Positions 1,361-53,042 of a DNA stretch of 64,000 nt are shown piece after piece (position 1 is the first letter of the stretch; every line of letters starts with the position of its first letter). A model generated the notes under the pieces. That model worked only from the letters and a program-made list of their open reading frames with translations, was not told the origin of the DNA and ran no database searches. The position numbers were made by a program, and so were the translations under genes. The DNA lies in sequence record OR544954. The stretch is one strand, 5' to 3'. The DNA is from Escherichia phage vB_EcoM_EP32a.

Positions 1361-1377
1361 AATTACTCCTTTTCTAT

Positions 1378-1389
1378 TATTTATAAATA
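1378..1389. promoter_or_regulatory. overlapping divergent late promoters (TATTTATA / TATAAATA)
   Basis: Sequence tatttataaata: TATAAATA on plus strand 19 nt upstream of the gp26 ATG (RBS aaggag at 1397) and its complement on the minus strand upstream of gp51. Confidence 0.6.
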
Positions 1390-1407
1390 CACAATAAAGG
1401 AGTTAAC

Positions 1408-2034
1408 ATGTACAAATATACATTTACCGTACGTTTAGGCGATAAAGAAGTGAATTGTAGAGCTTTTACTTTAAAAGAATATTTAGGACTCATAGGTGCG
1501 CGGGCTACCGGTACTATTGAATCAGCAGTGAACAATATTATCACTAATTGCTCTAATGCTAAAAACTTGACCAAACAAGAAGCCGAGCTATTGTTGGTAA
1601 ATCTGTGGGCACATTCATTAGGTGAAGTGAATCAAGAACACACCTGGAATTGTTCCTGTGGGCATTCATTTCAAGTCTATATGAATTTATTGCACACTCA
1701 ATTAGATGAACAGGCCGATCCCTGGTATTCGTTCAGTGGTATTAAAATTAAGTTCCGTCAACCTAAATTATTTGACGATAAAAATATCGCATTAATGATT
1801 GCTTCATGTATTGAGGCCGTTTTTGTCAATGGAGAGTCCATCCCTGTTGAAGATTTAACTGAAGCAGAAATAAATGACCTTTACGGCCTTATAACAGAAG
1901 ATGACATGATCAATATTAAAAATCTTTTGGTATCGCCATCAATTTATCTGGCAACCCCTATTAAATGTCCCAAATGTGGGGCGTCACACGTTCACACAAT
2001 ACGAGGCCTCAAAGAATTCTTTGAGTTACTATAA
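1408..2034 (+). CDS. 26: baseplate hub subunit gp26
   Basis: 208 aa ORF, same length as T4 gp26; RBS aaggag; stop overlaps gp25 start. Confidence 0.8.
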   Translation: MYKYTFTVRLGDKEVNCRAFTLKEYLGLIGARATGTIESAVNNIITNCSNAKNLTKQEAELLLVNLWAHSLGEVNQEHTWNCSCGHSFQVYMNLLHTQLDEQADPWYSFSGIKIKFRQPKLFDDKNIALMIASCIEAVFVNGESIPVEDLTEAEINDLYGLITEDDMINIKNLLVSPSIYLATPIKCPKCGASHVHTIRGLKEFFELL

Positions 2035-2432
2035 TGTCTAATATCAATAAACTTTATTCAGATATCGACCCAGAAATGCGTATGGATTGGAACAAGGACG
2101 TTGCTCGTTCTGTAGGACTTCGTTCTATTAAAAATAGTCTTCTTGGCATAGTGACAACTAGAAAAGGCTCACGCCCCTTCGACCCTGAATTTGGATGCGA
2201 TTTGGTCGACGAACTTTTCGAGAACATGACACCACTTACAGCCGATACTATTGAGCGTAATATCCAGGCAGCTGTTCGTAACTATGAGCCGCGCATCGAC
2301 AAACTTTCTGTAAGTGTAACGCCAGTATATGACGACTATACGGTTATAGTAGAGATTAGATTTTCGGTCGTAGACAACCCTGACGATATTGAACAAATTA
2401 AACTTCAGTTAGCGTCAAGCAATAGAGTGTAA
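2034..2432 (+). CDS. 25: baseplate wedge subunit gp25
   Basis: 132 aa ORF (MSNINKLYSDIDPEMRMDWNKD...), same length and near-identical start to T4 gp25. Confidence 0.9.
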   Translation: MSNINKLYSDIDPEMRMDWNKDVARSVGLRSIKNSLLGIVTTRKGSRPFDPEFGCDLVDELFENMTPLTADTIERNIQAAVRNYEPRIDKLSVSVTPVYDDYTVIVEIRFSVVDNPDDIEQIKLQLASSNRV

Positions 2433-2457
2433 TGCTTCAAGGCAACCTATGTATAAT
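2431..2457 (+). promoter_or_regulatory. MotA-dependent middle promoter of uvsY (MotA box TGCTTCA plus -10 TATAAT)
   Basis: aaTGCTTCAa at 2433-2439, then a 12-nt spacer and TATAAT at 2452-2457, about 55 nt upstream of the uvsY ATG. Confidence 0.6.
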
Positions 2458-2511
2458 GGTTTTAGGTCCTTCCGATACAGCCGGGAGATTATTAGTTAAA
2501 GAGAGAATATT

Positions 2512-2925
2512 ATGAAGCTGGAAGATTTACAGGAAGAGTTAGACGCGGACTTAGCTATTGATATGACAAAGTTGCAATATGAGACGGCGAATAATGTTAA
2601 GTTATACAGCAAATGGCTACGTAAGCACTCATTTATTCGTAAAGAAATGTTGCGTATAGAGACTCAGAAGAAAACTGCTCTAAAAGCAAGATTAGACTAC
2701 TACTCGGGACGAGGTGACGGTGATGAATTCAGTATGGACCGATACGAGAAATCTGAAATGAAAACTGTCCTGGCTGCAGATAAAGATGTGCTTAAAATAG
2801 AGACTACTTTACAATACTGGGGAATTTTACTTGAGTTCTGTAGTGGTGCACTTGACGCAGTTAAGTCTCGTAGTTTTGCACTTAAACATATCCAGGATAT
2901 GCGAGAATTTGAAGCGGGGCAATAA
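2512..2925 (+). CDS. uvsY: recombination mediator UvsY
   Basis: 137 aa ORF (MKLEDLQEELDADLAIDM...), T4 UvsY length and sequence. Confidence 0.9.
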   Translation: MKLEDLQEELDADLAIDMTKLQYETANNVKLYSKWLRKHSFIRKEMLRIETQKKTALKARLDYYSGRGDGDEFSMDRYEKSEMKTVLAADKDVLKIETTLQYWGILLEFCSGALDAVKSRSFALKHIQDMREFEAGQ

Positions 2926-3149
2926 TGCGTTATTCAATTGAAGATGCCTTTAATAATGACGAAGAATTTGAAACTGAAATTAAATTCTTAATGGAAAAGT
3001 ATCGTCTACGTCGTCAGGATATTCGTATTCTGGCAGACCACCCTTGTGGTGAAGACGTCCTTTATATTAAAGGGAAGTTTGCCGGGTATCTTGATGAATA
3101 TTTTTATTCTAAAGATATGGGCATTGATATGCATATGCGAATTGTATAA
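2925..3149 (+). CDS. small protein downstream of uvsY (uvsY.-1-like)
   Basis: 74 aa ORF whose ATG overlaps the uvsY stop (ATGA-type overlap); position as T4 uvsY.-1. Confidence 0.6.
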   Translation: MRYSIEDAFNNDEEFETEIKFLMEKYRLRRQDIRILADHPCGEDVLYIKGKFAGYLDEYFYSKDMGIDMHMRIV

Positions 3150-3181
3150 ATAGATATGTAATTTCAACTTAGGAGGCAATC

Positions 3182-3664: not shown

Positions 3665-5179
3665 TTATAAATTAATTGTTTTCATTACATAGTTAAATTT
3701 CTCATCAGCGTAACGTTGGATACGATCAATACCGTGTTTTAACAAGTAATTAAGATGAGTATACTTCTTTTTAGTATTTAATGATTTAGGTTTTACGCCT
3801 GCATCGTCGATGAGATCCCAAACTGTAGCAACAGCTTTAGAACCATGCTTGCGAAGCACACGACCTACGGTTTGAAGTACGATAATTTTTGATTTAACAC
3901 CATGAGCAAAAATAACATGATGAAGATTCTTGACTGAAATACCAGTAGAGAATACTCCATATGATGCGACAATAATAATGCCTTTACCATTTTCTGCCAT
4001 GACTTTAAGCGCGTTACGTGTTTCAGTATCAACTTCACCTGATACGTAATAAACTTTTTCGTATCCAAGCTCTTTAATAGCTTCAAATATTTCTTTACCG
4101 TGTGTAACGTGTTTAAACATTACAAAGGCGTTCTCGTCTTTCTTAGCCAATTTGACTGAAAGTTGAGCAATCCACTTTGTACGTCGTTTTAGTCCGGTAA
4201 TAATTTTAACTTCTTCTTGGTATGTTTTACCTTTTAATTTGGTGGCGAATTCGTCTGGATAACGAAGGAAAATACTATTAATCTTAAGCTCAGTTACCTG
4301 TCCATCTTCCATTAATTTAGACGTGCTAACAGGACGGAAGATTTCGCCGAACATACCTACGTACTGCATTACATTGGCTTTTCCGTCTCTTAATGAGCCA
4401 GATAAACCGAATTTAAACATACAATTATTTAATCCAGAGATGATTGAAGAAATACTTTTGCCTGTTGCTAAGTGGCATTCATCGTTCATCATCATACCGA
4501 ACTGAGAGAACCATTCTTTAGGCTGCTTAACTACTGTTTGCCATGTGCCAACAATAATTGGAGCGTCGTTTTTAGATTTGTCTGCTTTATCAGCACCACC
4601 GCCAATTTTCTTAATCATCGAATGACTAAACAAGCGATAATCAACAAAATCATTAGCCATCTGGGTTGTCAATGCTGTTGTAGGGACGATAATGAGAATT
4701 TTACCTTCATAGTTCTCTAGATAATATCGAGCTAAAAGTGCTTGGATTAGTGATTTACCTGCTGATGTCGGAAGGTTTAAAATTCGACGACGATTAACTA
4801 GTCCTTCATATACTGCATCTTTTTGATACCAATGTGGTTCGATTTTGGCGTTGCCGGAATAAATTTCTTGTTTAGAAAGCCATGCGTCAAAATCTTCCCT
4901 GGTAAGGTCTTCGGTCTCAAAGATTTTAGGGTCAATCCATACAGAATAACTCATATTGTTACAGAACTTTTTTATTTGTCCTACAAGTCCATATGGTAAC
5001 AAACGGTTGTAATCTAAAAGTCGAATTCTACCATCCCATTGCCCATAGCGATATTTTGGGTTAAATTTATACCCGTCAGCTTCAAAGCTAAAAAAGTCAC
5101 GAAGTTCGTAAAACGTACTTTCGTCGCATTCAATGCGCACGTGACTAAAATCATAAAAATGTACTTTAATGTCAGTCAT
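3665..5179 (-). CDS. uvsW: UvsW DNA/RNA helicase (SF2)
   Basis: 504 aa ORF; Walker A-like LPTSAGKS and DEAH-like MMNDECH motifs; position between inh and uvsY as in T4. Confidence 0.85.
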   Translation of the reverse strand: MTDIKVHFYDFSHVRIECDESTFYELRDFFSFEADGYKFNPKYRYGQWDGRIRLLDYNRLLPYGLVGQIKKFCNNMSYSVWIDPKIFETEDLTREDFDAWLSKQEIYSGNAKIEPHWYQKDAVYEGLVNRRRILNLPTSAGKSLIQALLARYYLENYEGKILIIVPTTALTTQMANDFVDYRLFSHSMIKKIGGGADKADKSKNDAPIIVGTWQTVVKQPKEWFSQFGMMMNDECHLATGKSISSIISGLNNCMFKFGLSGSLRDGKANVMQYVGMFGEIFRPVSTSKLMEDGQVTELKINSIFLRYPDEFATKLKGKTYQEEVKIITGLKRRTKWIAQLSVKLAKKDENAFVMFKHVTHGKEIFEAIKELGYEKVYYVSGEVDTETRNALKVMAENGKGIIIVASYGVFSTGISVKNLHHVIFAHGVKSKIIVLQTVGRVLRKHGSKAVATVWDLIDDAGVKPKSLNTKKKYTHLNYLLKHGIDRIQRYADEKFNYVMKTINL

Positions 5180-5208
5180 GTCAAATTACCATGTAATAAA
5201 TATAGTTA

Positions 5209-5216
5209 TATTTATA
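5209..5216 (-). promoter_or_regulatory. late promoter motif (TATAAATA on minus strand) upstream of uvsW
   Basis: tatttata on plus strand about 30 nt upstream of the uvsW ATG. Confidence 0.45.
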
Positions 5217-5229
5217 ATGAGGAAATATC

Positions 5230-5898
5230 ATGATCGATAAAGACTATATTGAAGAGTTACGTGCTCTTTCTGATAAAAAGGAAGCCAAAGCTAAACTGTT
5301 TGAATATGCGGAACAATTTGGCATTAGTGTTAAGAAAACAAAATCATTCGATAATATTGTTATTGATATCGAAGAAGCTCTTAACGCACTGGCTGATGAA
5401 CCATTACCTGAAACTGATGGATTATCTATCACCGATTTAATTACTGCCGCAGATGATGTAGACGGTGTTAATTTCACCAACGAAGAAGTTAAAGAAGAAG
5501 CTATTCTGTTGTTTGATTCTCCAACAGAACAAGTTGAAGTATTGGAAGTTGTCGAACAAGAAAAAGAATTCGACCACGTTAAATTCGAAGAAGCAATTAC
5601 TCAGATTGTTGAATCTGAAAAAGAGCCTGAGCCAGAGGTAAATAAAGAAGTAAAATTTGTTCTGCCTGAAAATTTTAGTCCTACACTCATTAAATTAGGC
5701 AAAGGCCCAGGATATGTTACTGTTCCTTGGTGGATTTATCAATGGATAGCCGAAACCCCAGATTGGAAATCCCGCCCGACTAGTTTTGTACATGCTTCTG
5801 CTCACCAAACATTATTTAGCTTAATTTATTATATTAATCGCGACGGATCAGTTCTAATTCGTGAAACTCGTAATTCTTCTTTCGTAACATTAAAATAA
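5230..5898 (+). CDS. inh: Inh, inhibitor of prohead protease gp21
   Basis: 222 aa ORF directly upstream of hoc, as in T4. Confidence 0.7.
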   Translation: MIDKDYIEELRALSDKKEAKAKLFEYAEQFGISVKKTKSFDNIVIDIEEALNALADEPLPETDGLSITDLITAADDVDGVNFTNEEVKEEAILLFDSPTEQVEVLEVVEQEKEFDHVKFEEAITQIVESEKEPEPEVNKEVKFVLPENFSPTLIKLGKGPGYVTVPWWIYQWIAETPDWKSRPTSFVHASAHQTLFSLIYYINRDGSVLIRETRNSSFVTLK

Positions 5899-7700: not shown

Positions 7701-8699
7701 ATGTTTAAGAAATACAGCAGTCTTGAAAACCACTACAACTCTAAGTTTATTGAAAAACTCTACACTAATGGTTTGACTACTGGTGTTTGGGTAGCACGTG
7801 AGAAAATCCATGGGACTAACTTCTCGTTAATAATTGAACGTGACAACGTCACATGCGCCAAGCGCACAGGCCCTATTCTTCCAGCAGAAGATTTTTATGG
7901 CTATGAAATCGTACTCAAGAAGTATGATAAAGCTATTAAAGCCGTTCAGGAATTCATGGGTAGTTCTCGAGCCGTATCATATCAAGTATTCGGTGAATTC
8001 GCTGGTGGTGGAATCCAGAAAGGTGTTGACTACGGTGAAAAAGATTTTTATGTGTTCGATATCCTTATCAATACAGAAAGTGGTGATAATACATATTTGA
8101 CTGATTACGAAATGCAAGATTTCTGTAATGAATTCGGTTTTAAAATGGCACCAATGCTTGGTCGTGGAACATTTGACGCTCTTATCATGATTCCAAACGA
8201 CCTTGATTCTGTCTTAGCCGCTTATAATGCTACTGCGTCAGAAGACCTTGTCGAAGCAAATAATTGTGTATTTGATGCTAATGTTATTGGTAATAATACT
8301 GCAGAAGGTTATGTTCTGAAGCCTTGTTTCCCTAAATGGCTGCCAAACGGTACTCGTGTAGCTATTAAGTGCAAGAACTCTAAATTCAGTGAAAAGAAAA
8401 AGTCTGATAAACCTGTTAAAACTCAGGTTCCATTAACTGAAATTGACAAAAACTTGCTTGATGTTCTAGCTTGTTATGTTACGTTAAATCGTGTTAATAA
8501 TGTGATTTCTAAGATTGGGACTGTAACACCAAAAGATTTTGGCAAAGTGATGGGATTGACTGTTCAAGATATTCTGGAAGAAACTTCTCGTGAAGGTATT
8601 GTATTAACATCATCTGATAATCCGAATCTTGTTAAGAAAGAATTAGTCCGAATGGTGCAAGATGTTCTGCGTCCTGCATGGATTGAATTAGTATCATAA
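7701..8699 (+). CDS. rnlB: RNA ligase 2 (Rnl2)
   Basis: 332 aa ORF; N-terminus [20 protein letters not shown] and the ligase KxHG motif (REKIHGTNF) as in T4 Rnl2. Confidence 0.9.
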
Positions 8700-8700
8700 C

Positions 8701-8731
8701 AAAAAAGGGACCTTACGGTCCCTTTTGTTTT
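8701..8731. terminator. bidirectional terminator between rnlB (+) and gene 24 (-)
   Basis: gggacc-ttac-ggtccc hairpin flanked by an A-run and a T-run. Confidence 0.65.
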
Positions 8732-10013
8732 ATTCATCGATGATAATTTTCGGTAGTTTAACACCTAATAAAACAGACAAGTCTGAACGTCCTGCCATTT
8801 TATCCATGTCCCCGCCATCAATTATTCTCGCTTCTTTTTCATCTTTTGCTACTGTGTAAGGATTTGCTGATAACGCATATCTAACCAATAATCCGATAGA
8901 CGGTTGCAAGCTTTCTGGATCAACTACAACTTTAAATGCACCGACATGTTCCGGGTCATCTAAATCTATTCCTTCAGTGTATGGAGCATAAAAGATGGAC
9001 CCTACAATTTCTTTTTCGCCGAGATTTTCTACAACACCCACAATAACATAATCTAACGGGCTGTTGGTATCGCAGTAAAGAGGTAATCCATTTGCCAAGA
9101 ATCCATAAGCATTTTGTGAAAGATACTTGTCATCTTCTGGCTTATGTTTTAACCAACCAGAAGCAGCAAGAATAGCAGCTGCACGGGCTGAGGCTACACA
9201 AAACGTTGCAGTATAAGTTGTTTCTTTTTGAATGTGTGATACCATTTCACACACCATTCGATATAATGAACGACCTGCTTCTGGAGCTGATGCATAACTC
9301 AAGTCAATAAATCCGGTGTCAGTAATTCCAGTAACTTTATAACGTTTCGATACAGTAATTAAAGACTGAAGAATATCTTTATTAATTTCATCTGCCATTT
9401 CAGTAGCAAGCAAATCTTCTAAGAAGTTAGGGGCATCAAATCCATTCGCTTCTAAATCTTGCGCTAATTCGACCGTTAGGCCAGTTTTAAGTTTACGAGA
9501 TTTGACTGAAGTTTGCCATTTATTAATCTGGAATCTTGCATCAGAAATTTCGCTATCAGAGCTTTCAAATTTGTTTGTTACCGCTGCATCTGAAAATAAC
9601 CGTACCTTTAAATGAACGACTGCAATCTGAAGAGCTAATTCTAGATCACTTTCTTGAATATCTGCAAATGGTGTATCTTCTAACACTTTATAGACGATAT
9701 TATTATATTTGAAAAAATCACCTTTATTTAGTGTGACTTTTGATTCTTCTGTGAGCTCAGTAATTTTTTCTCGGTCTACATATCCAGCTTCGCCTGCATA
9801 AGTAGCACCAGTTTTAAATGTGAATTCGTTATCTGGGTTAAGATATTTGATACCATAAAAAGCAGCAACAGGTTGATTAGTTCTTTGTGTTGCTACAATG
9901 TCAGAATATATTAATTTAGTCGTAGCGCGAGTCAAAGCAACGAGATTTGGGCGACCAATTGAGTTGCTAGTAGACGTTGTAGATTCACGCAATAATTTTT
10001 GGATTTTACTCAT
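8730..10013 (-). CDS. 24: capsid vertex protein gp24
   Basis: 427 aa ORF, T4 gp24 length; gp23-like fold signature; position downstream of gene 23. Confidence 0.9.
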   Translation of the reverse strand: MSKIQKLLRESTTSTSNSIGRPNLVALTRATTKLIYSDIVATQRTNQPVAAFYGIKYLNPDNEFTFKTGATYAGEAGYVDREKITELTEESKVTLNKGDFFKYNNIVYKVLEDTPFADIQESDLELALQIAVVHLKVRLFSDAAVTNKFESSDSEISDARFQINKWQTSVKSRKLKTGLTVELAQDLEANGFDAPNFLEDLLATEMADEINKDILQSLITVSKRYKVTGITDTGFIDLSYASAPEAGRSLYRMVCEMVSHIQKETTYTATFCVASARAAAILAASGWLKHKPEDDKYLSQNAYGFLANGLPLYCDTNSPLDYVIVGVVENLGEKEIVGSIFYAPYTEGIDLDDPEHVGAFKVVVDPESLQPSIGLLVRYALSANPYTVAKDEKEARIIDGGDMDKMAGRSDLSVLLGVKLPKIIIDE

Positions 10014-10040
10014 TGCATTTTTTCCTTATGTGATATAGAT

Positions 10041-10048
10041 TATTTATA
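10041..10048 (-). promoter_or_regulatory. late promoter motif upstream of gene 24
   Basis: tatttata on plus strand (TATAAATA on minus) about 28 nt upstream of the gp24 ATG. Confidence 0.5.
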
Positions 10049-10054
10049 AAGATT

Positions 10055-10114
10055 GTTTACAACGTATTTGGTATGTGATACTATAGACTTATCAACTACA
10101 GAGGAGTAAACAAA
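10055..10114 (+). promoter_or_regulatory. early-promoter cassette (GTTTAC -35, TACTAT -10, RBS GAGGAG)
   Basis: GTTTAC, 18-nt spacer, TACTAT, then tatagacttatcaactacagaggagtaaacaaaATG; near-identical copy at 45507-45565. Confidence 0.6.
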
Positions 10115-10384
10115 ATGACTAAAGCACGTTTCTTACGAGATACTTTAAAAGTTCTAGAAGCTGAAGCAGTTAAGTTAGTAGAAAAATATGGTGCAAAAGT
10201 TAATGGTAATGCCTTCAACAAAGTATGGATGAAAGTTGATTCTGAAGCTCGAGCTAAAGGTTATTGGGCCACTGATAAACTTGCATCATTCAAAAACAAA
10301 GACGGTTCTCCAGCGTATGTCCAAGAAGGTATGCCTAATTGGCAAAATATTTTGAAAACTTACATCAAAATTGCACAGAAATAA
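10115..10384 (+). CDS. hypothetical protein between genes 24 and 23
   Basis: 89 aa ORF (MTKARFLRDTLKVLEAEAVK...) on the opposite strand to the structural genes, with its own promoter cassette. Confidence 0.6.
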   Translation: MTKARFLRDTLKVLEAEAVKLVEKYGAKVNGNAFNKVWMKVDSEARAKGYWATDKLASFKNKDGSPAYVQEGMPNWQNILKTYIKIAQK

Positions 10385-10392
10385 AACCAAAA

Positions 10393-10415
10393 ATGGGAGA
10401 CCGAAGTCTCCCAAA
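10393..10415 (-). terminator. intrinsic terminator downstream of gene 23
   Basis: gggagac-cgaa-gtctccc hairpin followed by a U-run on the minus strand. Confidence 0.6.
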
Positions 10416-10436
10416 ATAAGATTTAATCAATTAAGA

Positions 10437-12005
10437 TTAGATGCCTTTTACATATACACGGCGGAAGTAAGCGTTCTTACCAAGGCTGTTCAGGATAGAC
10501 GGCATACCGGACTGGATGCGAGCACCTGGAGCCTGCAGGGAACTTTCAGCAAACGGGTTAACACCGATACCGTAACGAGTTTTAAAGCCCATTACCGGCT
10601 GGAAGTTCTTAGGATCGGAACCACGCAGTGGGGTAAGTGCAACGTAAGGAGCATAGTAAATACCTGCATCCATTTCGTTAGCGCCTTTGTAACCAACGGT
10701 GAAGTAATCCTGTTTAGCATACTGGTCGATGTACACGCGGTATTTACCACCAAGTACACCGGCAAATACAGACTTAGTAGTGTCGGTATTAAAACCAGAA
10801 GCCAGACCCTGTGCAGCGTAAGAAATACCAGTATCAACTGAAGCCAGTACGTTAACTACGTTACGGGAAGCGATAATGAAGTTACCTTCACCACGACCTG
10901 TTTGACGAGCAATTTCAACTGCTTCTTTATCAATCTGGAACAACAGAGATTTAAAGCTTTCACCGGCCCAACGAGCACCACGGATATCAATCGGGTCCTG
11001 GAAGTCAAATACACCAGCTTTAGAACCCGGAGTCAGGGTCATACCAGATTTACCAACCTGTGCTGAGTAGTTAATCCAATCAACAACTTCACGGTTGATT
11101 TCTAGCATAATTTCTGTAGCCAGAATACCGCTCAGTTCAGCATCAGCATCCATACCGTGTACTGCACGGAGGTCTTGTGCTAATTCGATAGAGTAAGCAG
11201 CTTTCAGCTGGCGAGATTTAGCTTCGATAACTTGTTTATCGATACGGAAGCCCATTTCATTCCATGGGTTATCGGTAGAACCGTTGAAACCTTCCTGGAG
11301 TTCAGCGATAGAAGTAGCCATACCTTCAGCGATTTCTACCAGTGCACCAGCTTCCATTTGTTTCTTAACTTCTGCATCTAATTTAGCTGCATCAGTTGCA
11401 CCAGAATCAAGTGTTACGATAGCAGAAGCTTGCAGATATACAGTACCAGTTTCTTGGAAGAAGTGAGTATAGATATCACCTACAACAGTAGTAGTGTCAG
11501 CAGCCAGAGCTGGGAATTTCTTAGCAGCACCCTGACCAGAGAACATCGCGTCTGGGGCATACATCGGATGGAAAGCTTCTTTAGCGCCAGCAGCGATAGG
11601 GTCTTTACCATATACTGCACGGAGAGCAAATACCTGACCGGTCGGGCTGTTCATAGGCTGAACACCACAAATATCAAAAGCGATCAGATTAGGAATAGCA
11701 CGACGAACCATACCCATAACTGCCGGCCCAATTTGGGTTACTGCACCAGAGGTTTGACCTGCTGCGATGTTCTGAGCATTATAACCATGGTCACCACCAA
11801 TTTCAGCTTCGGTCAAGAAAGAACCGAATGCCTGAGCGATTTTCTCGTCTTTATATTCAGGGGATACTTCGAAATCTTTTTCCTGGTTTTCGAAGATTTT
11901 AGCGATAATAGCCTGCTTGCTATTAGCGATTTCCGGCAGGCCTTCACCTTCCAGCAGTTCTTTCCATTTGTCTACGAGCTGAGCTTTAGTTTTGATAGTA
12001 GTCAT
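10437..12005 (-). CDS. 23: major capsid protein gp23
   Basis: 522 aa ORF (MTTIKTKAQLVDKWKELLEGEGLPEIANSKQAIIAKIFENQEKDF...), near-identical to T4 gp23. Confidence 0.95.
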   Translation of the reverse strand: MTTIKTKAQLVDKWKELLEGEGLPEIANSKQAIIAKIFENQEKDFEVSPEYKDEKIAQAFGSFLTEAEIGGDHGYNAQNIAAGQTSGAVTQIGPAVMGMVRRAIPNLIAFDICGVQPMNSPTGQVFALRAVYGKDPIAAGAKEAFHPMYAPDAMFSGQGAAKKFPALAADTTTVVGDIYTHFFQETGTVYLQASAIVTLDSGATDAAKLDAEVKKQMEAGALVEIAEGMATSIAELQEGFNGSTDNPWNEMGFRIDKQVIEAKSRQLKAAYSIELAQDLRAVHGMDADAELSGILATEIMLEINREVVDWINYSAQVGKSGMTLTPGSKAGVFDFQDPIDIRGARWAGESFKSLLFQIDKEAVEIARQTGRGEGNFIIASRNVVNVLASVDTGISYAAQGLASGFNTDTTKSVFAGVLGGKYRVYIDQYAKQDYFTVGYKGANEMDAGIYYAPYVALTPLRGSDPKNFQPVMGFKTRYGIGVNPFAESSLQAPGARIQSGMPSILNSLGKNAYFRRVYVKGI

Positions 12006-12022
12006 TTGTGTTAACCTTTAAA

Positions 12023-12835
12023 TTAGAAACGAGATGCGACTTTCGCATATAAACTTACATTAGAATTCTGTTCTACCTGAGTTGTGGTAGTGTCAACTGC
12101 TTCGGCAACAAAATTAAGACCGGCAGCGTCATTGTCAACTGTATTTATACTTTCGGTAATAGCGGCTTCTTCTTTAGTAGAACCTTTAACCATTTCTACA
12201 ATAGCAGTTAACTTAGTACCAAATGCGTCAGAATAATCCATACCTTCAACCAGGCCAATAACTTTTTCTTTCTGAGATTCAGTCAGGTCTTTTACGCTTT
12301 CATTAATAGCGGTTTCACGCTGAACGTAATTGATATATGCATCACGTTTGGTAACTTCTTCGAACAAACGAGCGGTTTCTTCTTTATGTTCGGCCAGCTC
12401 TTCTTCCATTTCTGCTACAACATCTACAGATTCTTCTGGAACAACAACGTTATGTTCAACAAACAGTTCTTTCAGACCACCAAGCATGGATTCGAACAAA
12501 TCAGCTTTAATGCCTTTATCAACTGCGATTTGGTTTTCTGCGAGCCATTCTTTTGCAAGATGGTCTAGGAATTTAGAAGCTTGTTCAGCCAATTTTTTAT
12601 CAGCTTTCTCTTCAGCATCTTCTTTAGCCTTTTCAACTTCTTCTTCGGCTTTTTCGGCGATGGCTTTGATATGAGATTCAGCCAGTTTGACTGCTTCCTG
12701 CTTAACGGTGGCTTCGAATACAGTGCTGAAATTAGCTTTAACGTCCGGAGACAGTTCTACTGATTCGAAAACACTATTAAGAGCAACTGAAGTCTCGATG
12801 TTCTGAGCTTCTTTCAAAAGTTGTTCTTTGATCAT
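12023..12835 (-). CDS. 22: prohead core scaffold protein gp22
   Basis: 270 aa acidic, coiled-coil-rich ORF directly upstream of gene 23. Confidence 0.85.
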   Translation of the reverse strand: MIKEQLLKEAQNIETSVALNSVFESVELSPDVKANFSTVFEATVKQEAVKLAESHIKAIAEKAEEEVEKAKEDAEEKADKKLAEQASKFLDHLAKEWLAENQIAVDKGIKADLFESMLGGLKELFVEHNVVVPEESVDVVAEMEEELAEHKEETARLFEEVTKRDAYINYVQRETAINESVKDLTESQKEKVIGLVEGMDYSDAFGTKLTAIVEMVKGSTKEEAAITESINTVDNDAAGLNFVAEAVDTTTTQVEQNSNVSLYAKVASRF

Positions 12836-44352: not shown

Positions 44353-44426
44353 GGCCCTGTAGCTCAATGGTTAGCAGCAGTCCCCTCATAAGGGAAAGGT
44401 TACCAGTTCGAATCTGGTCTGGGTCA
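44353..44426 (+). tRNA. tRNA with anticodon CAU (Met or Ile2-type)
   Basis: Hand-folded cloverleaf: acceptor ggccctg pairs with ctgggtc (one U-U), D-loop with GG, anticodon loop cuCAUaa, T-arm accag-TTCGAAT-ctggt; D-stem only 3 bp. Confidence 0.6.
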
Positions 44427-44432
44427 TATATT

Positions 44433-44509
<77 letters not shown>

Positions 44510-46717: not shown

Positions 46718-47320
46718 ATGCGAAACCAAAATAATGATATTGACTCAATGTTCGAAGAGTTCCGAAATAAGGTAAATCCACCTACGTCTTTAGTTGATTC
46801 ATTACGATATGTTGCAACTGGACGTAAATGGTACTGGTCGTCTTCTTATGAGACTACTGAGAAAACGGCCAGCCATAGCAGAAAATCTTTATTAGCCCCA
46901 GGTATTATGATTCATGATATCGGAGCTATTGCTAAACTAGTTGCAGACCATGATATTAGATTCACTGATTTCGTTGCTCCTACGTGGTCTGTTTGTTGTT
47001 TAAACACTGAATGGGAATATATCAGCGAACGCTCTAAAGATTATTATGGTTTTAGAGACAAGCTTTTAAGGTCTAACATGTTTTATATTGATACAGAAGT
47101 TCTGGTCAATAATAAAAAATACTACTTCACTTTAATCATCGATTCTGAAACTATGTATGAAGGCAAGCCTTTGCTTAAGAGAGTTGATGCTTTAAGTGCT
47201 ATTGATGCGCTTTATGAAACTATGGTTGTTAGTCCTAATTTCACTAACAATTTAATCCTTGAGCAATTTATTATGGAATGTAGAGAATATGTCAAAGCCA
47301 ACCCTATACATGCCAAGTAA
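46718..47320 (+). CDS. hypothetical protein
   Basis: ORF track starts at 46697; RBS aaggag plus Met at 46718 (same taaaggagttaacATG context as gene 26). Confidence 0.6.
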   Translation: MRNQNNDIDSMFEEFRNKVNPPTSLVDSLRYVATGRKWYWSSSYETTEKTASHSRKSLLAPGIMIHDIGAIAKLVADHDIRFTDFVAPTWSVCCLNTEWEYISERSKDYYGFRDKLLRSNMFYIDTEVLVNNKKYYFTLIIDSETMYEGKPLLKRVDALSAIDALYETMVVSPNFTNNLILEQFIMECREYVKANPIHAK

Positions 47321-47684
47321 GCCCTGGGCGTATGAATACAAGCGTAAATTAATCCCAAATGAAGTACTATTTGGCCCTATTTTAGCTTTAGCATTTTTAA
47401 TCTTTATGATTATAGGAGCTGTTTTAGATTCTAGTGAAGTTATATCGTCTGATGCAGCATTTTCATTAATGTTCGTCGCACCACTTATTGTACCGTTTTT
47501 ATTAATGCCTATTAATTGGGTAGGATATTGGCACCAAGGCCGTCATCACAGAGCCCGATTAAGAGAATGGAAAGTTCAGTGCGCAAAAGCCCAAGCTCAG
47601 TATGATGAAGCTGTTAAAAAGTATGAATATGAAGAAGCTATGGAATTCGTTAAGGAAATAAGATGCAAAAGCCTCAACTCTTAA
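47289..47684 (+). CDS. small membrane protein, C-terminal EFVKEIRCK family member
   Basis: Start ambiguous (Met at 47289 or 47310); two predicted TM helices; C-terminal motif shared with 47663, 50440 and 51347 ORFs. Confidence 0.55.
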   Translation: MSKPTLYMPSKPWAYEYKRKLIPNEVLFGPILALAFLIFMIIGAVLDSSEVISSDAAFSLMFVAPLIVPFLLMPINWVGYWHQGRHHRARLREWKVQCAKAQAQYDEAVKKYEYEEAMEFVKEIRCKSLNS

Positions 47685-48022
47685 CCGTATGGCCTTCTCT
47701 TGGTGAGAACATTCTAATTTTTATTATGAGTATTGGCATGGGATTTGCCTTTGGATTAGTTGGATTTCTTATTGACGGCGTTGTGTTAGGATTTATAGGG
47801 AACACTGGTGGATTCACAGACCAATGGCAGGACTTACGGTACACCCAAGCCTTTGCATCCATCGCATCATTTTGTACTGTAGTCTATTTTTACTACGATT
47901 TTATAAACCACAACAAGAAAAATAAAAAGGTTTACGCTTCTCAAATGATTAGTTATAATGAACTCCTAGCTAGACGTGAAAATGAAACAATCGAAAACTT
48001 TATTAAGGAATGTAGAAAATGA
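47663..48022 (+). CDS. small membrane protein, C-terminal ENFIKECRK family member
   Basis: 119 aa, RBS aagga; TM helices; C-terminus ...ETIENFIKECRK. Confidence 0.6.
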   Translation: MQKPQLLTVWPSLGENILIFIMSIGMGFAFGLVGFLIDGVVLGFIGNTGGFTDQWQDLRYTQAFASIASFCTVVYFYYDFINHNKKNKKVYASQMISYNELLARRENETIENFIKECRK

Positions 48023-48324
48023 GTAAGATTATTGAAATTAAAGTACCAGAGTTTAATGATGCCAAATCCGCTTCAGATGCAATTTATAAACTTCTGAATC
48101 AAGCTGAACGTATCGAAGAAGAAGCAACAAAGATCGCAGACCAATATGCCGTATCATTTTCTGTAGGTGATTATGGTAGCGGTCGTACTTATTATCCTAA
48201 GGGTGAAATCGTATCCCAGTGGATGAAAGATGAAATTGAAAATAATGGCGGCGATGTTAAGCGTGAAGGTAATGGATACGTTATTACTGAAGGTGCTTGG
48301 GTTTCGTCTTCTGCGTTGTGCTAA
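48019..48324 (+). CDS. hypothetical protein, tandem paralog 1 (C-terminal GAWVSSSALC)
   Basis: 101 aa; shares a GxGxTYxxPG-like middle motif and the C-terminal GWV[SA]SSxxC motif with the next two ORFs. Confidence 0.6.
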   Translation: MSKIIEIKVPEFNDAKSASDAIYKLLNQAERIEEEATKIADQYAVSFSVGDYGSGRTYYPKGEIVSQWMKDEIENNGGDVKREGNGYVITEGAWVSSSALC

Positions 48325-48333
48325 GGAATCATT

Positions 48334-48606
48334 ATGTCTAAAGAACAAACCGAACTGGCTGAAGCTGTAGCAAAAATCTATGCAGCTATTGAGGCTGCCA
48401 AAGAAATTGCTGATAAACAAAACACAACATTCAACTTGTACCCAGCTTATGGTATGGGTGGAACCTATCATTCACCCGGACATCTTAAAGCCGATCTTGA
48501 ACGTTGTACAAAAAACGGCTATGCTGAATGGGCTGACGTTTACCAATACGACTACAACCTGAGCCTCGAAACTGGTGGTTGGGTCGCATCTTCTCACACT
48601 TGCTAA
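48334..48606 (+). CDS. hypothetical protein, tandem paralog 2 (C-terminal GGWVASSHTC)
   Basis: 90 aa; RBS ctaaggaa; same family. Confidence 0.6.
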   Translation: MSKEQTELAEAVAKIYAAIEAAKEIADKQNTTFNLYPAYGMGGTYHSPGHLKADLERCTKNGYAEWADVYQYDYNLSLETGGWVASSHTC

Positions 48607-48615
48607 GGAAACAAT

Positions 48616-48813
48616 ATGTCTCGTGAATTAGATTGTGCTGTACGTACGGCAGTAGCTGCTCTGGAAAACCTGTTCCAAATTGCAACAGAAGAACGCGAAG
48701 AAGTTACATTATGGATTGAAGATAACGCAGGTCTGAATCTCCAGGACGCGATCTCATTATCCCACAATAGTATCACTGTTCAAGGCTGGGTATCATCTAG
48801 TTATTCTTGCTAA
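48616..48813 (+). CDS. hypothetical protein, tandem paralog 3 (C-terminal QGWVSSSYSC)
   Basis: 65 aa; RBS ctaaggaa; same family, shortest member. Confidence 0.55.
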   Translation: MSRELDCAVRTAVAALENLFQIATEEREEVTLWIEDNAGLNLQDAISLSHNSITVQGWVSSSYSC

Positions 48814-48817
48814 AACA

Positions 48818-48875
48818 GTTTACAACAAGATAGGGCTATGTTATAGTAGTCCTATCAAAACAAATGGAGTCCACA
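48818..48875 (+). promoter_or_regulatory. PeSL-like early promoter cassette
   Basis: GTTTACA, spacer, TATAGT; inverted repeat gatagggcta/tagtcctatc (one mismatch); leader caaaacaaatggag. Confidence 0.65.
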
Positions 48876-49115
48876 ATGATTTATTACGAAAGTATCGGAA
48901 CCAAAGTGGTTGGCAAAACCATTACTCGTGAAAAGTTTGCAAAGATATTCGATATGCGTTATAAAAAATCTGAACACAAAGGCATCCGATTCGAAGATGC
49001 GCACTGTACAATTTGCCCTTATAATGAAGACATAAACGGTACAATCGTTCCATTGGTAGAAGCTTCACATGATGACCTCTGGGATGAATATAATATCGCA
49101 TGTCGTGAAATTTAA
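48876..49115 (+). CDS. hypothetical protein
   Basis: ORF track starts at 48864; Met at 48876 after the conserved leader; about 79 aa. Confidence 0.55.
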   Translation: MIYYESIGTKVVGKTITREKFAKIFDMRYKKSEHKGIRFEDAHCTICPYNEDINGTIVPLVEASHDDLWDEYNIACREI

Positions 49116-49143
49116 GTTAATGAATTAATCCGAGGAAAATATT

Positions 49144-50100
49144 ATGATGTTAGTTATTGGTTCTCGTGCACTTCACTATCACGGTCTTATTGATTCTAGC
49201 GCTATCAAAAATAGTGATTGGGACTTTATTGCGGACCAAGGTTCTTGGAATGCATTCAAAAATCAAATGATGGGTGTATATGTCCACCAAGATAACCCTG
49301 ATGTCCAAGTTTTCAAATGCTTCCATAATGGTCGCGAAACTCATTTTGAAGCATATATTGTTCCGGCAATCACTAATGTCCGTGAATTAGTCGGTGAACT
49401 CACTCCTGAAGATTTCACATCTTCTTATGACCTTTTAAAATACGCCAAGAAAAATTTGACTAAAGACCGTTTGAACGGGTTTTACTGGGCAACTCCTGAG
49501 ATATGTCTTGCAATTAAGATGTCTCATCGTTTCAAGAAAAATAATCCATTCTTTTTAAAGACTATGAACCATATTCAGTATCTTCGTGGTAAAGGTGTTA
49601 CACTGAACGATGAACTTACTGAAATTATGCTGAAACGCCAAAAAGAAACTTTGAACTATGCTCACCCTGTTCTTGACACTTCTAAAAGTGCGTTCTTTAA
49701 AGATGACATCTATACATATGACCATGATACTATTCACGAAGCCATTGCACTAACAGACCGTCCGGCTTATATGTTTTACATGAAAGATGGTTCTGAAGTC
49801 ATGACCTCACGCGAGAAGTTCGAATCATTACCGGAAATGGTCAAATTGGCCGGTGTATATGAAGAATCATGTGTACTAGCATTAGAACGTTCTCAGATTC
49901 CTAACGACTTTAAAATCCATCCACGTGATAGTTTTATGATGGCCCTTGAAAAGGTCTGTACATCAATCACATCAGGATGGTTCCGTGAGTTCGCTTGGGA
50001 AAATTATAGCAAAGTAGTAAGTATGTACCAAAGCTTAGGACACGACGATTACGTCAAGCGTTTCAAACAAAACTTTCATATGGTAAAACCTTTCAAATAA
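49144..50100 (+). CDS. hypothetical 318 aa protein, possible nucleotidyltransferase-like N-terminus
   Basis: RBS gaggaaaa; N-terminal IGSRALHYHGL...SDWDF loosely resembles the GS-x(n)-DxD pattern of Pol-beta-superfamily nucleotidyltransferases (spacing longer than canonical). Confidence 0.5.
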   Translation: MMLVIGSRALHYHGLIDSSAIKNSDWDFIADQGSWNAFKNQMMGVYVHQDNPDVQVFKCFHNGRETHFEAYIVPAITNVRELVGELTPEDFTSSYDLLKYAKKNLTKDRLNGFYWATPEICLAIKMSHRFKKNNPFFLKTMNHIQYLRGKGVTLNDELTEIMLKRQKETLNYAHPVLDTSKSAFFKDDIYTYDHDTIHEAIALTDRPAYMFYMKDGSEVMTSREKFESLPEMVKLAGVYEESCVLALERSQIPNDFKIHPRDSFMMALEKVCTSITSGWFREFAWENYSKVVSMYQSLGHDDYVKRFKQNFHMVKPFK

Positions 50101-50112
50101 TTTCACAAAACA

Positions 50113-50180
50113 GTTTACAAGGTCTGTAGTTGTTGATACTATAGACCTATCAAAACAAATGAGTGAATGGAGATATAAAA
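50113..50180 (+). promoter_or_regulatory. PeSL-like early promoter cassette
   Basis: GTTTACA, spacer, TACTAT; inverted repeat ggtctgtag/ctatagacc; leader caaaacaaatgagtgaatggagatataaaaATG. Confidence 0.65.
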
Positions 50181-50439: not shown

Positions 50440-50745
50440 ATGAAATTAGGCGAAACCAACCGAATTGGTCTTTTAACAATATTTGTATCACTTTTTTACG
50501 CAGCTCTTTCTGTTGCAGTATTACAAAAGGCTTACAGTATGGATGGTGTTCCTGGTTGTATATTTTTATCACCATTTTTGCTATTCGTTGGAGCTTTGTT
50601 ATTATATGCCACGTCTGGTTTCGACAATAATGTCTGGGTCAATTATAAACGTAAATTGTCTGAAGAAGAACACGCAGAAGCTCGTAAAAAAGCTATTGAA
50701 TCTACCAATCTAGAAAATTTCATTAAAGAATGTCGAGGAAAATAA
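50440..50745 (+). CDS. small membrane protein, C-terminal ENFIKECRGK family member
   Basis: 101 aa; two TM helices; C-terminus ...STNLENFIKECRGK. Confidence 0.6.
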   Translation: MKLGETNRIGLLTIFVSLFYAALSVAVLQKAYSMDGVPGCIFLSPFLLFVGALLLYATSGFDNNVWVNYKRKLSEEEHAEARKKAIESTNLENFIKECRGK

Positions 50746-50789: not shown

Positions 50790-51347
50790 GTGGTTTTGCT
50801 CACGCGATTAAAAATGACCAGATTAAAAACGAGCCTATGTTCTTCAACTGTAGTATTTGATTCACGAGTCCATATGCTGATGCCTGGTTGGTATCCTGCT
50901 ATTCCAGGTTATCACCATGACGATGTACCACGCCCGGATATTCCAGTTGGTCAACACTTTATTACTGCAGGACAACCTGACTATGACAATCCTCGCTATT
51001 TGTCTGAACACATTCTTGGTCTTGTTAACGCTGATGTGTGTCCTACTCATTTTGCAACAGGAACTGCAGAGTTCAGTCAGATTCCTGATGGCGAACTTAT
51101 CTATCGCCAGTGGCACAAAGAAGTCCTCGAAAAAATCGAAAAAGGTGAACTAGAGAAATGGGAAGCTCCGGACCGTACTCTTCTTCAGTTTGATTGGCAA
51201 ACATGGCACACTGGTTCTCGTGCAATTAGTAATGGATGGCGTTGGTTCGGACGTGTATCTCGTAATACAGACCGAGTTAAAAAGATTACCAATGAAATTC
51301 GTGTCAATGCTCAAGTTTATCTGGAATTCCCTATGGAAGGCTGGTAA
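50790..51347 (+). CDS. hypothetical protein, possibly frameshifted
   Basis: 185 aa ORF whose 5' end overlaps, in another frame, a 37-codon ORF (50747-50860) that starts 1 nt after the upstream stop; no RBS for internal Mets. Confidence 0.4.
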   Translation: MVLLTRLKMTRLKTSLCSSTVVFDSRVHMLMPGWYPAIPGYHHDDVPRPDIPVGQHFITAGQPDYDNPRYLSEHILGLVNADVCPTHFATGTAEFSQIPDGELIYRQWHKEVLEKIEKGELEKWEAPDRTLLQFDWQTWHTGSRAISNGWRWFGRVSRNTDRVKKITNEIRVNAQVYLEFPMEGW

Positions 51348-51838
51348 TGATTAACAAAACATATTGGTCTAATATTGACGACGGCAATGAAGGTATTTCA
51401 TACTATTCAGTAGATTGGACAGGATGTCCATCCTACTTAGTGAAACGTATTTGCCAAGAATTTAAAATCGACCAGCCAGCAGGTATTATCGTGAACAGAT
51501 ACATTAATGGATATCAACCTATCGATGAAGTAATACGAACAACTCAAGCTGAGCTTGAAAAGTTTTTCAATAAGTGCCAATGGATAACAGGATGGATTAT
51601 ATTTGTACCGTCTATATGGTTTTTCAGTACTAAGGTGAGTTCTTTCGGTTTTGTTGATATTATTGCTATCTTATTAGCATCTACTATCGTAAGTATTATT
51701 GGCGGTATAATTGGTGGAGGTACTGTAGGCATCATTATTAATCTTATTAAAAGTAGTTTACAAGAACATAAAGACAAGATAAAAGCCAAGAATAATGAAG
51801 TTGAACGTTTTATTACCGAATGCAGGAATTTGAGATGA
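51347..51838 (+). CDS. membrane protein, C-terminal ERFITECRNLR family member
   Basis: 163 aa; TM helices with GGIIGGGTVGIII segment; ATGA overlap with upstream stop; C-terminal motif as family. Confidence 0.6.
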   Translation: MINKTYWSNIDDGNEGISYYSVDWTGCPSYLVKRICQEFKIDQPAGIIVNRYINGYQPIDEVIRTTQAELEKFFNKCQWITGWIIFVPSIWFFSTKVSSFGFVDIIAILLASTIVSIIGGIIGGGTVGIIINLIKSSLQEHKDKIKAKNNEVERFITECRNLR

Positions 51839-52071
51839 GTATAGCAATTTACATTAAATCAGAATCATGTGATAGTTATCTGTACACATACGATAAAGAT
51901 GTGTCAGAAGAAAAAATCAAAGACGACCTTAATACGGATCTTGATATGTTCTGTCCTATTGCAGATTACAAACTTGCGGTCTCTAATAGTGAAAGTCCAT
52001 CTAAAGAAACGCGCATTGAAGAATTTATGTCCGAATTAATGGCCAAATCATGGGACCGAGATGATGAGTAA
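51835..52071 (+). CDS. hypothetical acidic protein
   Basis: ORF track starts at 51820; Met at 51835 overlaps the upstream stop (ATGA). Confidence 0.5.
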   Translation: MSIAIYIKSESCDSYLYTYDKDVSEEKIKDDLNTDLDMFCPIADYKLAVSNSESPSKETRIEEFMSELMAKSWDRDDE

Positions 52072-52519
52072 GAAAAATAAAGTGAAAGAACTATCAGCCG
52101 GTATTATTTTCCTTACCGAAGATAAAGAATTATTCATGGGGCGTGTAACTGGTTCTCGTCCTAAAGGTTCTTTAGCTCATCGCTGGGATATTCCTAAAGG
52201 ACGTGTCGAGCCCGGTGAATCTCCTATTGAAGCCGCTATTCGCGAATGCGAAGAAGAAACTGGGTTTACACAATATGACCCTGCCTTCCTGAAAGACCTA
52301 GGTGAACATCATTACTCAGACAATAAGAATATTCATCTGTTCCTATATACCATCCCTGTAGAGCACGAGCAATTCAGAAACAGTGCTTGTAATTCCTATC
52401 ATACATTCCCAGACGGACGACAGATTCCTGAATTTGATGCGTTCGCTTTAATTAAACCTTCTCAATGGGAATATGTAATGGGCAAATCATTATATAAGGT
52501 GCTCACTACCCTCCTATAA
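52064..52519 (+). CDS. nudE: Nudix hydrolase NudE (e.1)
   Basis: Nudix box GRVEPGESPIEAAIRECEEETGF; immediately upstream of lysozyme e as in T4. Confidence 0.9.
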   Translation: MSKKNKVKELSAGIIFLTEDKELFMGRVTGSRPKGSLAHRWDIPKGRVEPGESPIEAAIRECEEETGFTQYDPAFLKDLGEHHYSDNKNIHLFLYTIPVEHEQFRNSACNSYHTFPDGRQIPEFDAFALIKPSQWEYVMGKSLYKVLTTLL

Positions 52520-52525
52520 GTAATA

Positions 52526-52553
52526 AATACCTCCTATAAACGTGGGAGGTATT
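52526..52553 (+). promoter_or_regulatory. RBS-sequestering hairpin with late-promoter-like TATAAA in the loop, upstream of e
   Basis: 9-bp perfect inverted repeat aatacctcc / ggaggtatt; the 3' arm contains the Shine-Dalgarno ggagg and ends 1 nt before the e ATG. Confidence 0.65.
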
Positions 52554-53042
52554 ATGAATATATTTGAAATGCTTCGTAATGACGAAGGTCTTAGACTGAC
52601 TTTATACAAAGACACTGAAGGCTTTTGGACGATTGGCATAGGCCATTTAGTAACAAAGAACCCATCTTTAGCCGTAGCTAAAGCTGAACTTGACAGAATG
52701 ATCGGACGTAAATGCAACGGTACAATTACCCTTGATGAGGCTGAAAAGCTATTTAATGAAGACGTTGATAAAGCTGTTCGCGGAATCTTGGGTAATGCTA
52801 AACTTAAACCGGTATATGATTCTTTAGATGCAGTTCGTCGATGTGCATTGGTCAATATGGTCTTCCAAATGGGTGTAACAGGCGTCGCCGGTTTTACTAA
52901 TTCTCTTCGTATGCTTCAACAGAAACGTTGGGACGAGGCGGCAGTAAATCTAGCCCAATCTAAATGGTACCGTCAGACACCTAATCGCGCGAAACGCGTA
53001 ATCTCAACATTTAAAACAGGAACTTGGAAAGCGTATATATGA
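52554..53042 (+). CDS. e: endolysin (T4 lysozyme, gene e)
   Basis: ORF track starts at 52542; Met at 52554 gives [32 protein letters not shown]..., near-identical to T4 lysozyme including the catalytic E11/D20 region. Confidence 0.95.

Follow-up and report, generated by a model that had tools for sequence, protein, structure and literature searches.

A predicted phage nucleotidyltransferase linked across lineages to a family of small proteins with a C-terminal cysteine motif

Introduction

The bacterial MenT toxins are nucleotidyltransferases (NTases) that extend the 3' ends of tRNA (PMC7450476, PMC10435456), and their C-terminal motifs III and IV form the active site together with the Pol-beta motifs (PMC7450476). 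MenT1 is encoded downstream of the gene for MenA1, a protein of 68 aa (PMC7450476), which regulates the toxin (PMC11375011). The MenT-type enzymes can also transfer phosphate to their own threonine or serine residues (PMC11375011). MenT and the related AbiEii proteins (DUF1814) are encoded by toxin-antitoxin loci of bacteria. The antibiotic nucleotidyltransferases ANT(2'')-Ia (PDB 4xje) and LnuA (PDB 4wh5) are single-domain enzymes of approximately 160-175 aa. Pol-beta NTases of large phages include the RlaP enzymes (PF10127; T4 NrdC.11) and the CCA-adding enzymes, which are linked to RNA repair (PMC7824862). RB69-like phages have an arabinosyl-5-hydroxycytosine pathway, encoded in the gp45-55 cluster, that contains a MurU-like sugar-activating NTase (PMC13326640).

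We analysed a 64,000-nt stretch of DNA from Escherichia phage vB_EcoM_EP32a (record OR544954), referred to below as the window, and concentrated on a gene for a 318-aa protein. The protein is a full-length member of Pfam DUF7277 + DUF7275 and of PHROG 2141, which are functionally uncharacterised catalogue entries; our literature search found no publications on this enzyme family. The assignment of a Pol-beta fold to the family is an ordinary result. As far as we could find, what is new here is the lineage-spanning linkage of an NTase to a small-protein family with a C-terminal cysteine motif.

Results

The gene for the 318-aa NTase-fold protein occupies positions 49144..50100 of the window (+ strand). 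It starts with ATG, and the sequence contains a Shine-Dalgarno element GAGG (49132..49135, +) 8 nt 5' of the start codon; the N-terminus of the product is MMLVIGSRALHYHGLIDSSAIKNSDWDFIA. The ORF and its good ribosome-binding site, both reported in a first-pass annotation of the window, were confirmed by the ORF list and the GAGG element, as was its place among the largest ORFs of the accessory region. This region, the counterpart of the T4 e.2-e.8 accessory region, is flanked by a tRNA-Met/tRNA-Arg pair (44353-44509) and nudE/lysozyme e (52061-53042). The DNA of the gene is 97-99% identical to Mosigvirus genes (e.g., those of SA79RD, moskry and APCEc01), which are labelled 'hypothetical protein'. 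Two sites resembling T4 early promoters bracket a unit composed of an 83-aa ORF (48864..49115, +, PHROG 3723) and the 318-aa gene. The first, (G)TTTACA-N17-TATAGT with a TG extension (48819..48847, +), lies 5' of both genes, and the second, (G)TTTACA-N17-TACTAT (50114..50142, +), is the downstream bound of the unit; both are consensus matches only, and the consensus scan, taken as a whole, gave no enrichment over shuffled sequence. The 83-aa ORF, situated between the small genes described below and the enzyme gene, was considered as a conserved partner of the enzyme and rejected, as the neighbourhood comparison placed it outside the broadly conserved module.

The search of a set of 5.8 billion proteins returned 2105 homologues at E<=1e-3, and 1236 representatives of 50%-identity clusters matched the enzyme. 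Using tblastn, 734 of 50,697 deposited phage genome records were positive, and throughout these approximately 1,200 clusters and 734 phage records the family is annotated only as 'hypothetical'. The reading of the ORF as a chance occurrence is excluded by these numbers, together with approximately 60 positions that are at least 90% conserved across 257 diverse sequences. The 318-aa ORF is thus a genuine phage gene, of the early class, and is clearly under selection. Two antisense ORFs of 64 and 60 aa (49150-49344 and 49555-49737, -) overlap the 318-aa gene internally; their counterparts 'recur' across 70 loci only because they are the shadow of a conserved coding sequence, and they are not genes.

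Members of the family were found in Straboviridae (Mosigvirus, Dhakavirus, Karamvirus, Moonvirus, Winklervirus, Tegunavirus and others, including Aeromonas and Acinetobacter phages), in Phapecoctavirus and Otagovirus, and in Stenotrophomonas and jumbo phages. A shorter form occurs in Gordonia, Streptomyces, Arthrobacter, Vibrio (KVP40-like) and Pseudoalteromonas phages. The six-frame HMM search of the whole T4 genome detected neither an enzyme-family member nor a member of the small-protein family described below. The pattern scan of one genome for each of 185,579 prokaryotic species, which would miss divergent cellular relatives, yielded eight loci, all of them on contigs of metagenome-assembled genomes (MAGs). 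These contigs are suspected to be mis-binned phage DNA, because several carry phage-type small genes and one carries a phage-like run of tRNA genes. From these sequence searches, the enzyme family looks phage-restricted. The contig with the tRNA run (L006), assigned to a MAG labelled Thermosynechococcus sp., carries twelve tRNA genes and an ARAGORN tmRNA call at 8544-12208, 2-6 kb downstream of the homologue, and phage-type small-protein genes upstream of it; the contig resembles phage DNA that was mis-binned into a cyanobacterial MAG. In the IMG/VR contig L062, the enzyme gene is split into pieces of 55 aa (4788-4955) and 209 aa (5085-5714), and the close relatives of this contig (L054, L057 and L082) carry an intact gene for a 308-aa enzyme. 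The split gene is either a pseudogene or a sequencing error; its phage group is among the few without small-protein genes within 5 kb.

The Pfam search assigned DUF7277 to aa 2-101 (1e-27, 97.1 bits) and DUF7275 to aa 120-305 (6e-79, 264.8 bits), both above the gathering cut-off of 27 bits, and the protein matched PHROG 2141 over its full length (6e-150). No other Pfam family was matched by the 318-aa protein at E<=1. When 27 diverse members were searched at E<=10, the sole additional family matched by more than one of them was DUF4269 (two members, best E 9e-4). AbiEii in the same Pfam search of 27 members and the AbiE models of PADLOC did not match the enzyme family, and the searches of PDB sequences, NCBIfam and PADLOC returned nothing meaningful for the 318-aa protein. 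The first-pass annotation had been unable to place the protein in any known family. This holds for characterised families, none of which matched, but not for catalogued ones, since the protein belongs to DUF7277/DUF7275 and PHROG 2141. A confident match to a characterised housekeeping phage protein, which would have spoken against a takeover role, was looked for and none was found.

The AlphaFold2 (AF2) model of the 318-aa protein, built from a 52-sequence alignment, had a pLDDT of 93.2 and a pTM of 0.87. According to the model and the conservation pattern, the N-terminal catalytic domain (aa 1-117; 49144..49494, +) is a minimal Pol-beta NTase core and has a Pol-beta-superfamily NTase fold. 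The core elements follow the order of strand 2-5, helix 6-12 opened by G6-S7 (codons 49159-49164, +), strand 26-31 and, further on, strand 64-73. The strand 26-31 adjoins D25 (codon 49216-49218, +) and bears D27 (codon 49222-49224, +), the DxD of the core, and strand 64-73 bears the third acidic residue, E69 (codon 49348-49350, +). The protein thus displays the Pol-beta fold signature, composed of a strand, hG[GS] at a helix start, a [DE]x[DE] strand and a later acidic strand. Among the 257 diverse homologues, conservation reached 98% for G6, 97% for S7, 99% for D25, 99% for D27 and 91% for E69. The top fold matches of the model were all NTases, and Foldseek assigned a probability of 1.00 to MenT1 and to 5uvd; judged by the model, the nearest solved folds are the MenT tRNA toxins and the antibiotic nucleotidyltransferases. 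The NTase-like motif that the first-pass annotation had tentatively pointed out, with non-canonical spacing, is therefore real, as the core order in the model, the fold matches and the 91-99% conservation of the catalytic residues all support it. The spacing between S7 and D25 is 17 residues (14 in the short homologues), and the canonical GS-to-DxD spacing in Pol-beta NTases is 9-13; on the alignments, the long spacing is a trait of the family.

The most conserved part of the protein is the predicted helical C-terminal domain (aa 118-318; 49495..50097, +; DUF7275). In the 257 sequences, K125, H128, K139, T140, H194, D195, H198, E240, E241, E248, R249, K270, S277, G278 and R281 were 100% conserved, and a conserved series K125-x-S-H-R ... 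K139-T ... D193-H-D195 comes after the NTase core. The fold search returned no convincing PDB neighbour for the C-terminal approximately 200 residues. The H...HD...H pattern formed by H128, H194-D195 and H198 raised the possibility of an HD-phosphohydrolase, which the fold search did not support.

The family differs from the described systems in several respects. No sequence homology to MenT/AbiEii (DUF1814), and especially to MenT1 (PDB 8an4), was detectable, and the approximately 200-aa C-terminal domain of the window enzyme is unmatched in the PDB. Electropositive surfaces have been described for MenT3 and MenT4, whereas the median pI of the family is 6.3. The window family occurs in phages, in contrast to the toxin-antitoxin loci of MenT/AbiEii. 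ANT(2'')-Ia and LnuA show no sequence similarity to the window enzyme and have neither DUF7275 nor partner proteins. The identity with T4 NrdC.11/RlaP was rejected, as the protein has no PF10127 match and no similarity to NrdC.11. The T4 nrdC.11 gene (L093, 5435-6445), named 'nucleotidyltransferase' in RefSeq, encodes a Pol-beta NTase with the motif YFGSHLYG...DVDF; its sequence, of the GSxxYG type, reads as RlaP-like and is unrelated to that of the 318-aa protein. The accessory NTases of T4-like phages thus belong to at least two separate families. The arabinosyl-5-hydroxycytosine pathway was rejected as well, since it lies in another region and involves another fold, and the window family is far more widely spread.

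Small ORFs ending in G-W-x-S-S-S-x-x-C-stop were first spotted just 5' of the enzyme gene in three unrelated phage groups. We compared 92 enzyme-bearing loci; IMG/VR supplied 80 of them, and the other 12 came from deposited genomes and from MAGs. The C-terminal regular expression identified 171 tail-motif ORFs in 79 of the 92 loci, all on the strand of the enzyme gene; out of 9490 ORFs, not one on the other strand ended in the motif. The corresponding HMM detected 214 small-family ORFs in 83 of the 92 loci, nearly all of them upstream of the enzyme (210/214). At 80% identity the small family was present in 51 of 56 lineages, and at 60% identity in 24 of 27. Each locus carries one to six copies in tandem, with a median gap of 346 nt to the enzyme gene. 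Several of the remaining loci contain ORFs with variant ends such as W-x-Q-S-S-C or W-N-S-S-N-C-F. The reverse search, starting from the small family, retrieved 30 loci, 28 of which extend far enough to be evaluated; in all 28, the enzyme gene lies downstream on the same strand, and many of the contigs overlap the first locus set. No other gene family recurred across lineages near the enzyme, as determined by BLAST clustering and by a Pfam census that took in 150 neighbouring ORFs of 27 lineages.

The 64-kb window contains exactly three such small ORFs and one enzyme gene. The first (48019..48324, +; PHROG 899) encodes a protein of 101 aa with a pI of 4.6 and the end ...GAWVSSSALC-stop, the second (48334..48606, +; PHROG 899) a protein of 90 aa ending in ...GGWVASSHTC-stop, and the third (48616..48813, +; PHROG 4882) a protein of 65 aa ending in ...QGWVSSSYSC-stop. 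Both PHROGs are catalogued as function unknown, and phages of other genera also encode proteins of the 101-, 90- and 65-aa types. The gene comparisons lead us to regard the enzyme and the upstream small family as a two-part module in phages of Gram-negative hosts; the 318-aa gene, taken as a single ORF in the first-pass annotation, is by its conserved gene order half of this module, with the three small ORFs at 48019-48813 as the other half. As far as our literature search found, the pairing of the two genes is undescribed. The homologue of the 101-aa protein in RB69, RB69ORF139c, is annotated with 71 aa and is 100% identical over 67% of the query. Its short length points to a wrongly called start, or else to a sequencing error, in the old record of RB69; two other RB69 genes are reported to be split by sequencing errors (PMC13326640).

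The small proteins differ in the length and sequence of their bodies, but their tails share an invariant W(-7), S(-4), S(-3) and terminal C. The distance between the serine run and the terminal cysteine is either 0 or 2 residues, and a [DA]YG.G.TY..P hairpin is common to many members. The small proteins are acidic (median pI 4.4, median charge -8.5). In the AF2 model of a small protein, W94-S96 falls within the final strand of a folded domain, and the fold search with this model returned no PDB neighbour. A toxicity screen of Yersinia phage phiR1-RT proteins in E. coli, which covered the small-protein homologues g126-g128 and left out the enzyme homologue g125, found g126, g127 and g128 non-toxic (relative CFU of 0.94, 0.69 and 1.08, respectively; cut-off 0.4) (PMC6893735). 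The small genes upstream of the enzyme belong to a family unrelated to MenA1, occur as one to six tandem paralogues and encode an invariant C-terminal cysteine motif.

Short homologues of approximately 253-263 aa are represented by Cucurbita gp15, Atuin gp147, Sham gp201 and the VH7D protein. An alignment of three of them (Cucurbita, Atuin and VH7D) showed that IGS...DxD...E is retained, as are most of the conserved residues of the C-terminal domain, and that the segments corresponding to aa ~28-62 and 75-117 of the window protein are missing; the homologues in which the catalytic and C-terminal residues persist come from Gordonia, Arthrobacter and Vibrio phages. The small-protein family was not found in the whole Cucurbita genome, nor around the Atuin and VH7D genes. 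The dependence of the two genes in the surveyed loci is asymmetric, with the enzyme occurring without partners and the partners never without the enzyme. This asymmetry suggests an ancestral acceptor particular to the enzyme, with the small proteins as dependent clients that act as substrates, adaptors or regulators. The Atuin gene lies inside a tRNA cluster, the Cucurbita gene 1.2 kb from one, and the Sham gene 0.8 kb downstream of a PF09414 RNA ligase. The adjacency to tRNA genes was rejected as a general rule, because only 12 of 60 loci overall have tRNA genes at a distance of up to 5 kb, and remains a weak lead for the short homologues. RNA-repair domains were rare among the enzyme neighbours in the Pfam census.

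Individual homologues have neighbours related to NAD metabolism. In Vibrio phage K460 (contig L136), a cluster annotated as ribose-phosphate pyrophosphokinase, phosphatase and nicotinamide phosphoribosyltransferase (NAMPT; 210-3163) lies approximately 650 bp upstream of the enzyme homologue (3818-4603) and resembles a phage NAD+ reconstitution pathway. Sir2-like genes are located 2-3 kb downstream of the homologue in UP17 (L002) and VH7D (L099). This pattern did not recur across lineages.

Discussion

From the retained catalytic residues, we infer that the 318-aa protein is an active, metal-dependent NTase of the Pol-beta superfamily. G6-S7, D25-x-D27 and E69 would hold the metal ions and the NTP, and closure of the cleft would fall to the helical C-terminal domain, along with binding of the triphosphate, base and acceptor. 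If other bilobal NTases are a guide, the invariant residues of this domain probably line the cleft and contact the NTP and the acceptor, the candidates being K125, H128, K139, H194-D195, H198, E240-E241, E248-R249, K270 and R281. If the enzyme acts as MenT does, it would add nucleotides to RNA 3' ends, most plausibly to the acceptor ends of tRNA, with the small proteins in the steering or restraining role that MenA1 plays for MenT1. The W-x-S-S-S-(x-x)-Cys end would be the likely site of their contact with the enzyme. We estimate the probability of this reading, an RNA 3'-end transferase steered by small proteins, at roughly 40%. It is preferred because the MenT relatives extend tRNA ends and MenT1 is under the control of a small protein encoded upstream, and also because the catalytic and cleft residues are alike with or without partners and some short homologues occur in tRNA or RNA-ligase contexts. 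The acidity of the small proteins was counted towards the same reading, and a universal substrate would fit the conservation across phages of Proteobacteria and Actinobacteria. Several observations weigh against it, however. The likeness to MenT is at the level of the fold only and covers approximately 145 residues, the enzyme is not basic, tRNA genes are near few of the loci and RNA-repair neighbours are rare. Moreover, one to six paralogous partners per genome would be odd for antitoxin-like inhibitors, and blocked tRNAs would harm the phage too.

The arrays of partners are better accounted for if the enzyme modifies the small proteins themselves, moving an NMP or phosphate onto the invariant tail serines and thereby maturing or activating small phage effectors. 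We regard such protein tagging as possible, though it is the less probable reading. NTase-fold enzymes are known to modify protein hydroxyls (GlnE, MntA, CitX/MdcG), and the fold is similar to those of the hydroxyl-modifying ANT(2'') and LnuA; the transfer of phosphate to their own threonine or serine by MenT-type NTases offers a further precedent (PMC11375011). The small family was never found without the enzyme downstream (28/28), only the W, the Ser-Ser and the terminal Cys are invariant in tails whose bodies vary, and the tandem paralogues in front of a single enzyme gene resemble the precursor arrays of peptide-modification clusters. A modified serine could eliminate to dehydroalanine, which the terminal cysteine could capture to give a lanthionine-like ring. 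The full version of this scheme, in which a MenT/ANT-like NTase recognises W-x-S-S-S-(x-x)-Cys-COOH, O-nucleotidylates the serines and perhaps gives rise to a C-terminal thioether ring, with the matured products acting as anti-host effectors, is unlikely, and somewhat more so than tagging in general. The short homologues that lack the small family nevertheless keep the conserved residues, a comparison that included a search of the whole Cucurbita genome, and the conserved acceptor is therefore probably something other than the small proteins. In addition, W94-S96 belongs to the final strand of a folded domain in the AF2 model and not to a free tail, and the variable distance between the serine run and the cysteine argues against one fixed ring.

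It is doubtful that the enzyme nucleotidylates a small metabolite or signal (antibiotic-like, a nucleotide or related to NAD/ADP-ribose), with the small proteins being unrelated or only loosely related to it. Its near-neutral pI would suit such a role, as would the cluster directly upstream in K460, the Sir2-like genes in UP17 and VH7D, the NAMPT domains in 2 of 150 neighbours and nudE, located 2 kb downstream in the window. NAD-type neighbours, however, occur in at most 5 of 27 lineages, the large conserved C-terminal domain has no counterpart in the antibiotic enzymes of ~160-175 aa, and the strongest observation, the linkage to the small proteins, would be left unaccounted for. It is improbable that the protein is an inert scaffold or binder with an NTase fold, such as a nucleotide-signal sponge or a decoy for host AbiE/MenT-type systems; phage proteins acting by binding alone are common, but inactive homologues would be expected to lose the catalytic set, and the GS/DxD/E residues are kept at 91-99% over very divergent members, minimal versions included.

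Candidate biological roles are host shut-off, tRNA repair and anti-defence. The candidate role in host takeover or anti-defence that the first-pass annotation had put forward would fit the early-promoter-like unit, the location in the accessory region, the phage-only distribution and the absence from T4, which are circumstantial evidence. The family comprises predicted intact NTases. Their nearest solved relatives extend tRNA ends and thereby block translation, and the enzyme genes are linked to genes for small proteins that carry an invariant Ser- and Cys-containing end. Should RNA ends be the acceptor, the module would represent a MenT-like enzyme of phages that acts on RNA ends under regulators of its own. 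Protein tagging, if true, would constitute a new protein-tagging chemistry, and if thioether formation were also involved, a new RiPP-like or protein-tagging enzyme class and a new type of phage weapon. Both outcomes bear on host takeover or self-defence by large virulent phages, including the therapeutic Mosigvirus and Phapecoctavirus.

Four predicted membrane proteins flank the module in the window (47259-47684, 47663-48022, 50440-50745 and 51347-51838, all +). They belong to PHROGs 2604, 2330, 9798 and 2203, of which only 2203 is named ('membrane protein'), and have a C-terminal motif in common (...ENFIKECRK, ...ENFIKECRGK, ...ERFITECRNLR and ...EFVKEIRC). Similar ends, ENFIRMCRK and FINDCRK, adjoin the homologue in Enterobacter phage CC31 (L034). 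Judging from these ends, the flanking membrane proteins may form a second paralogous family of the region.
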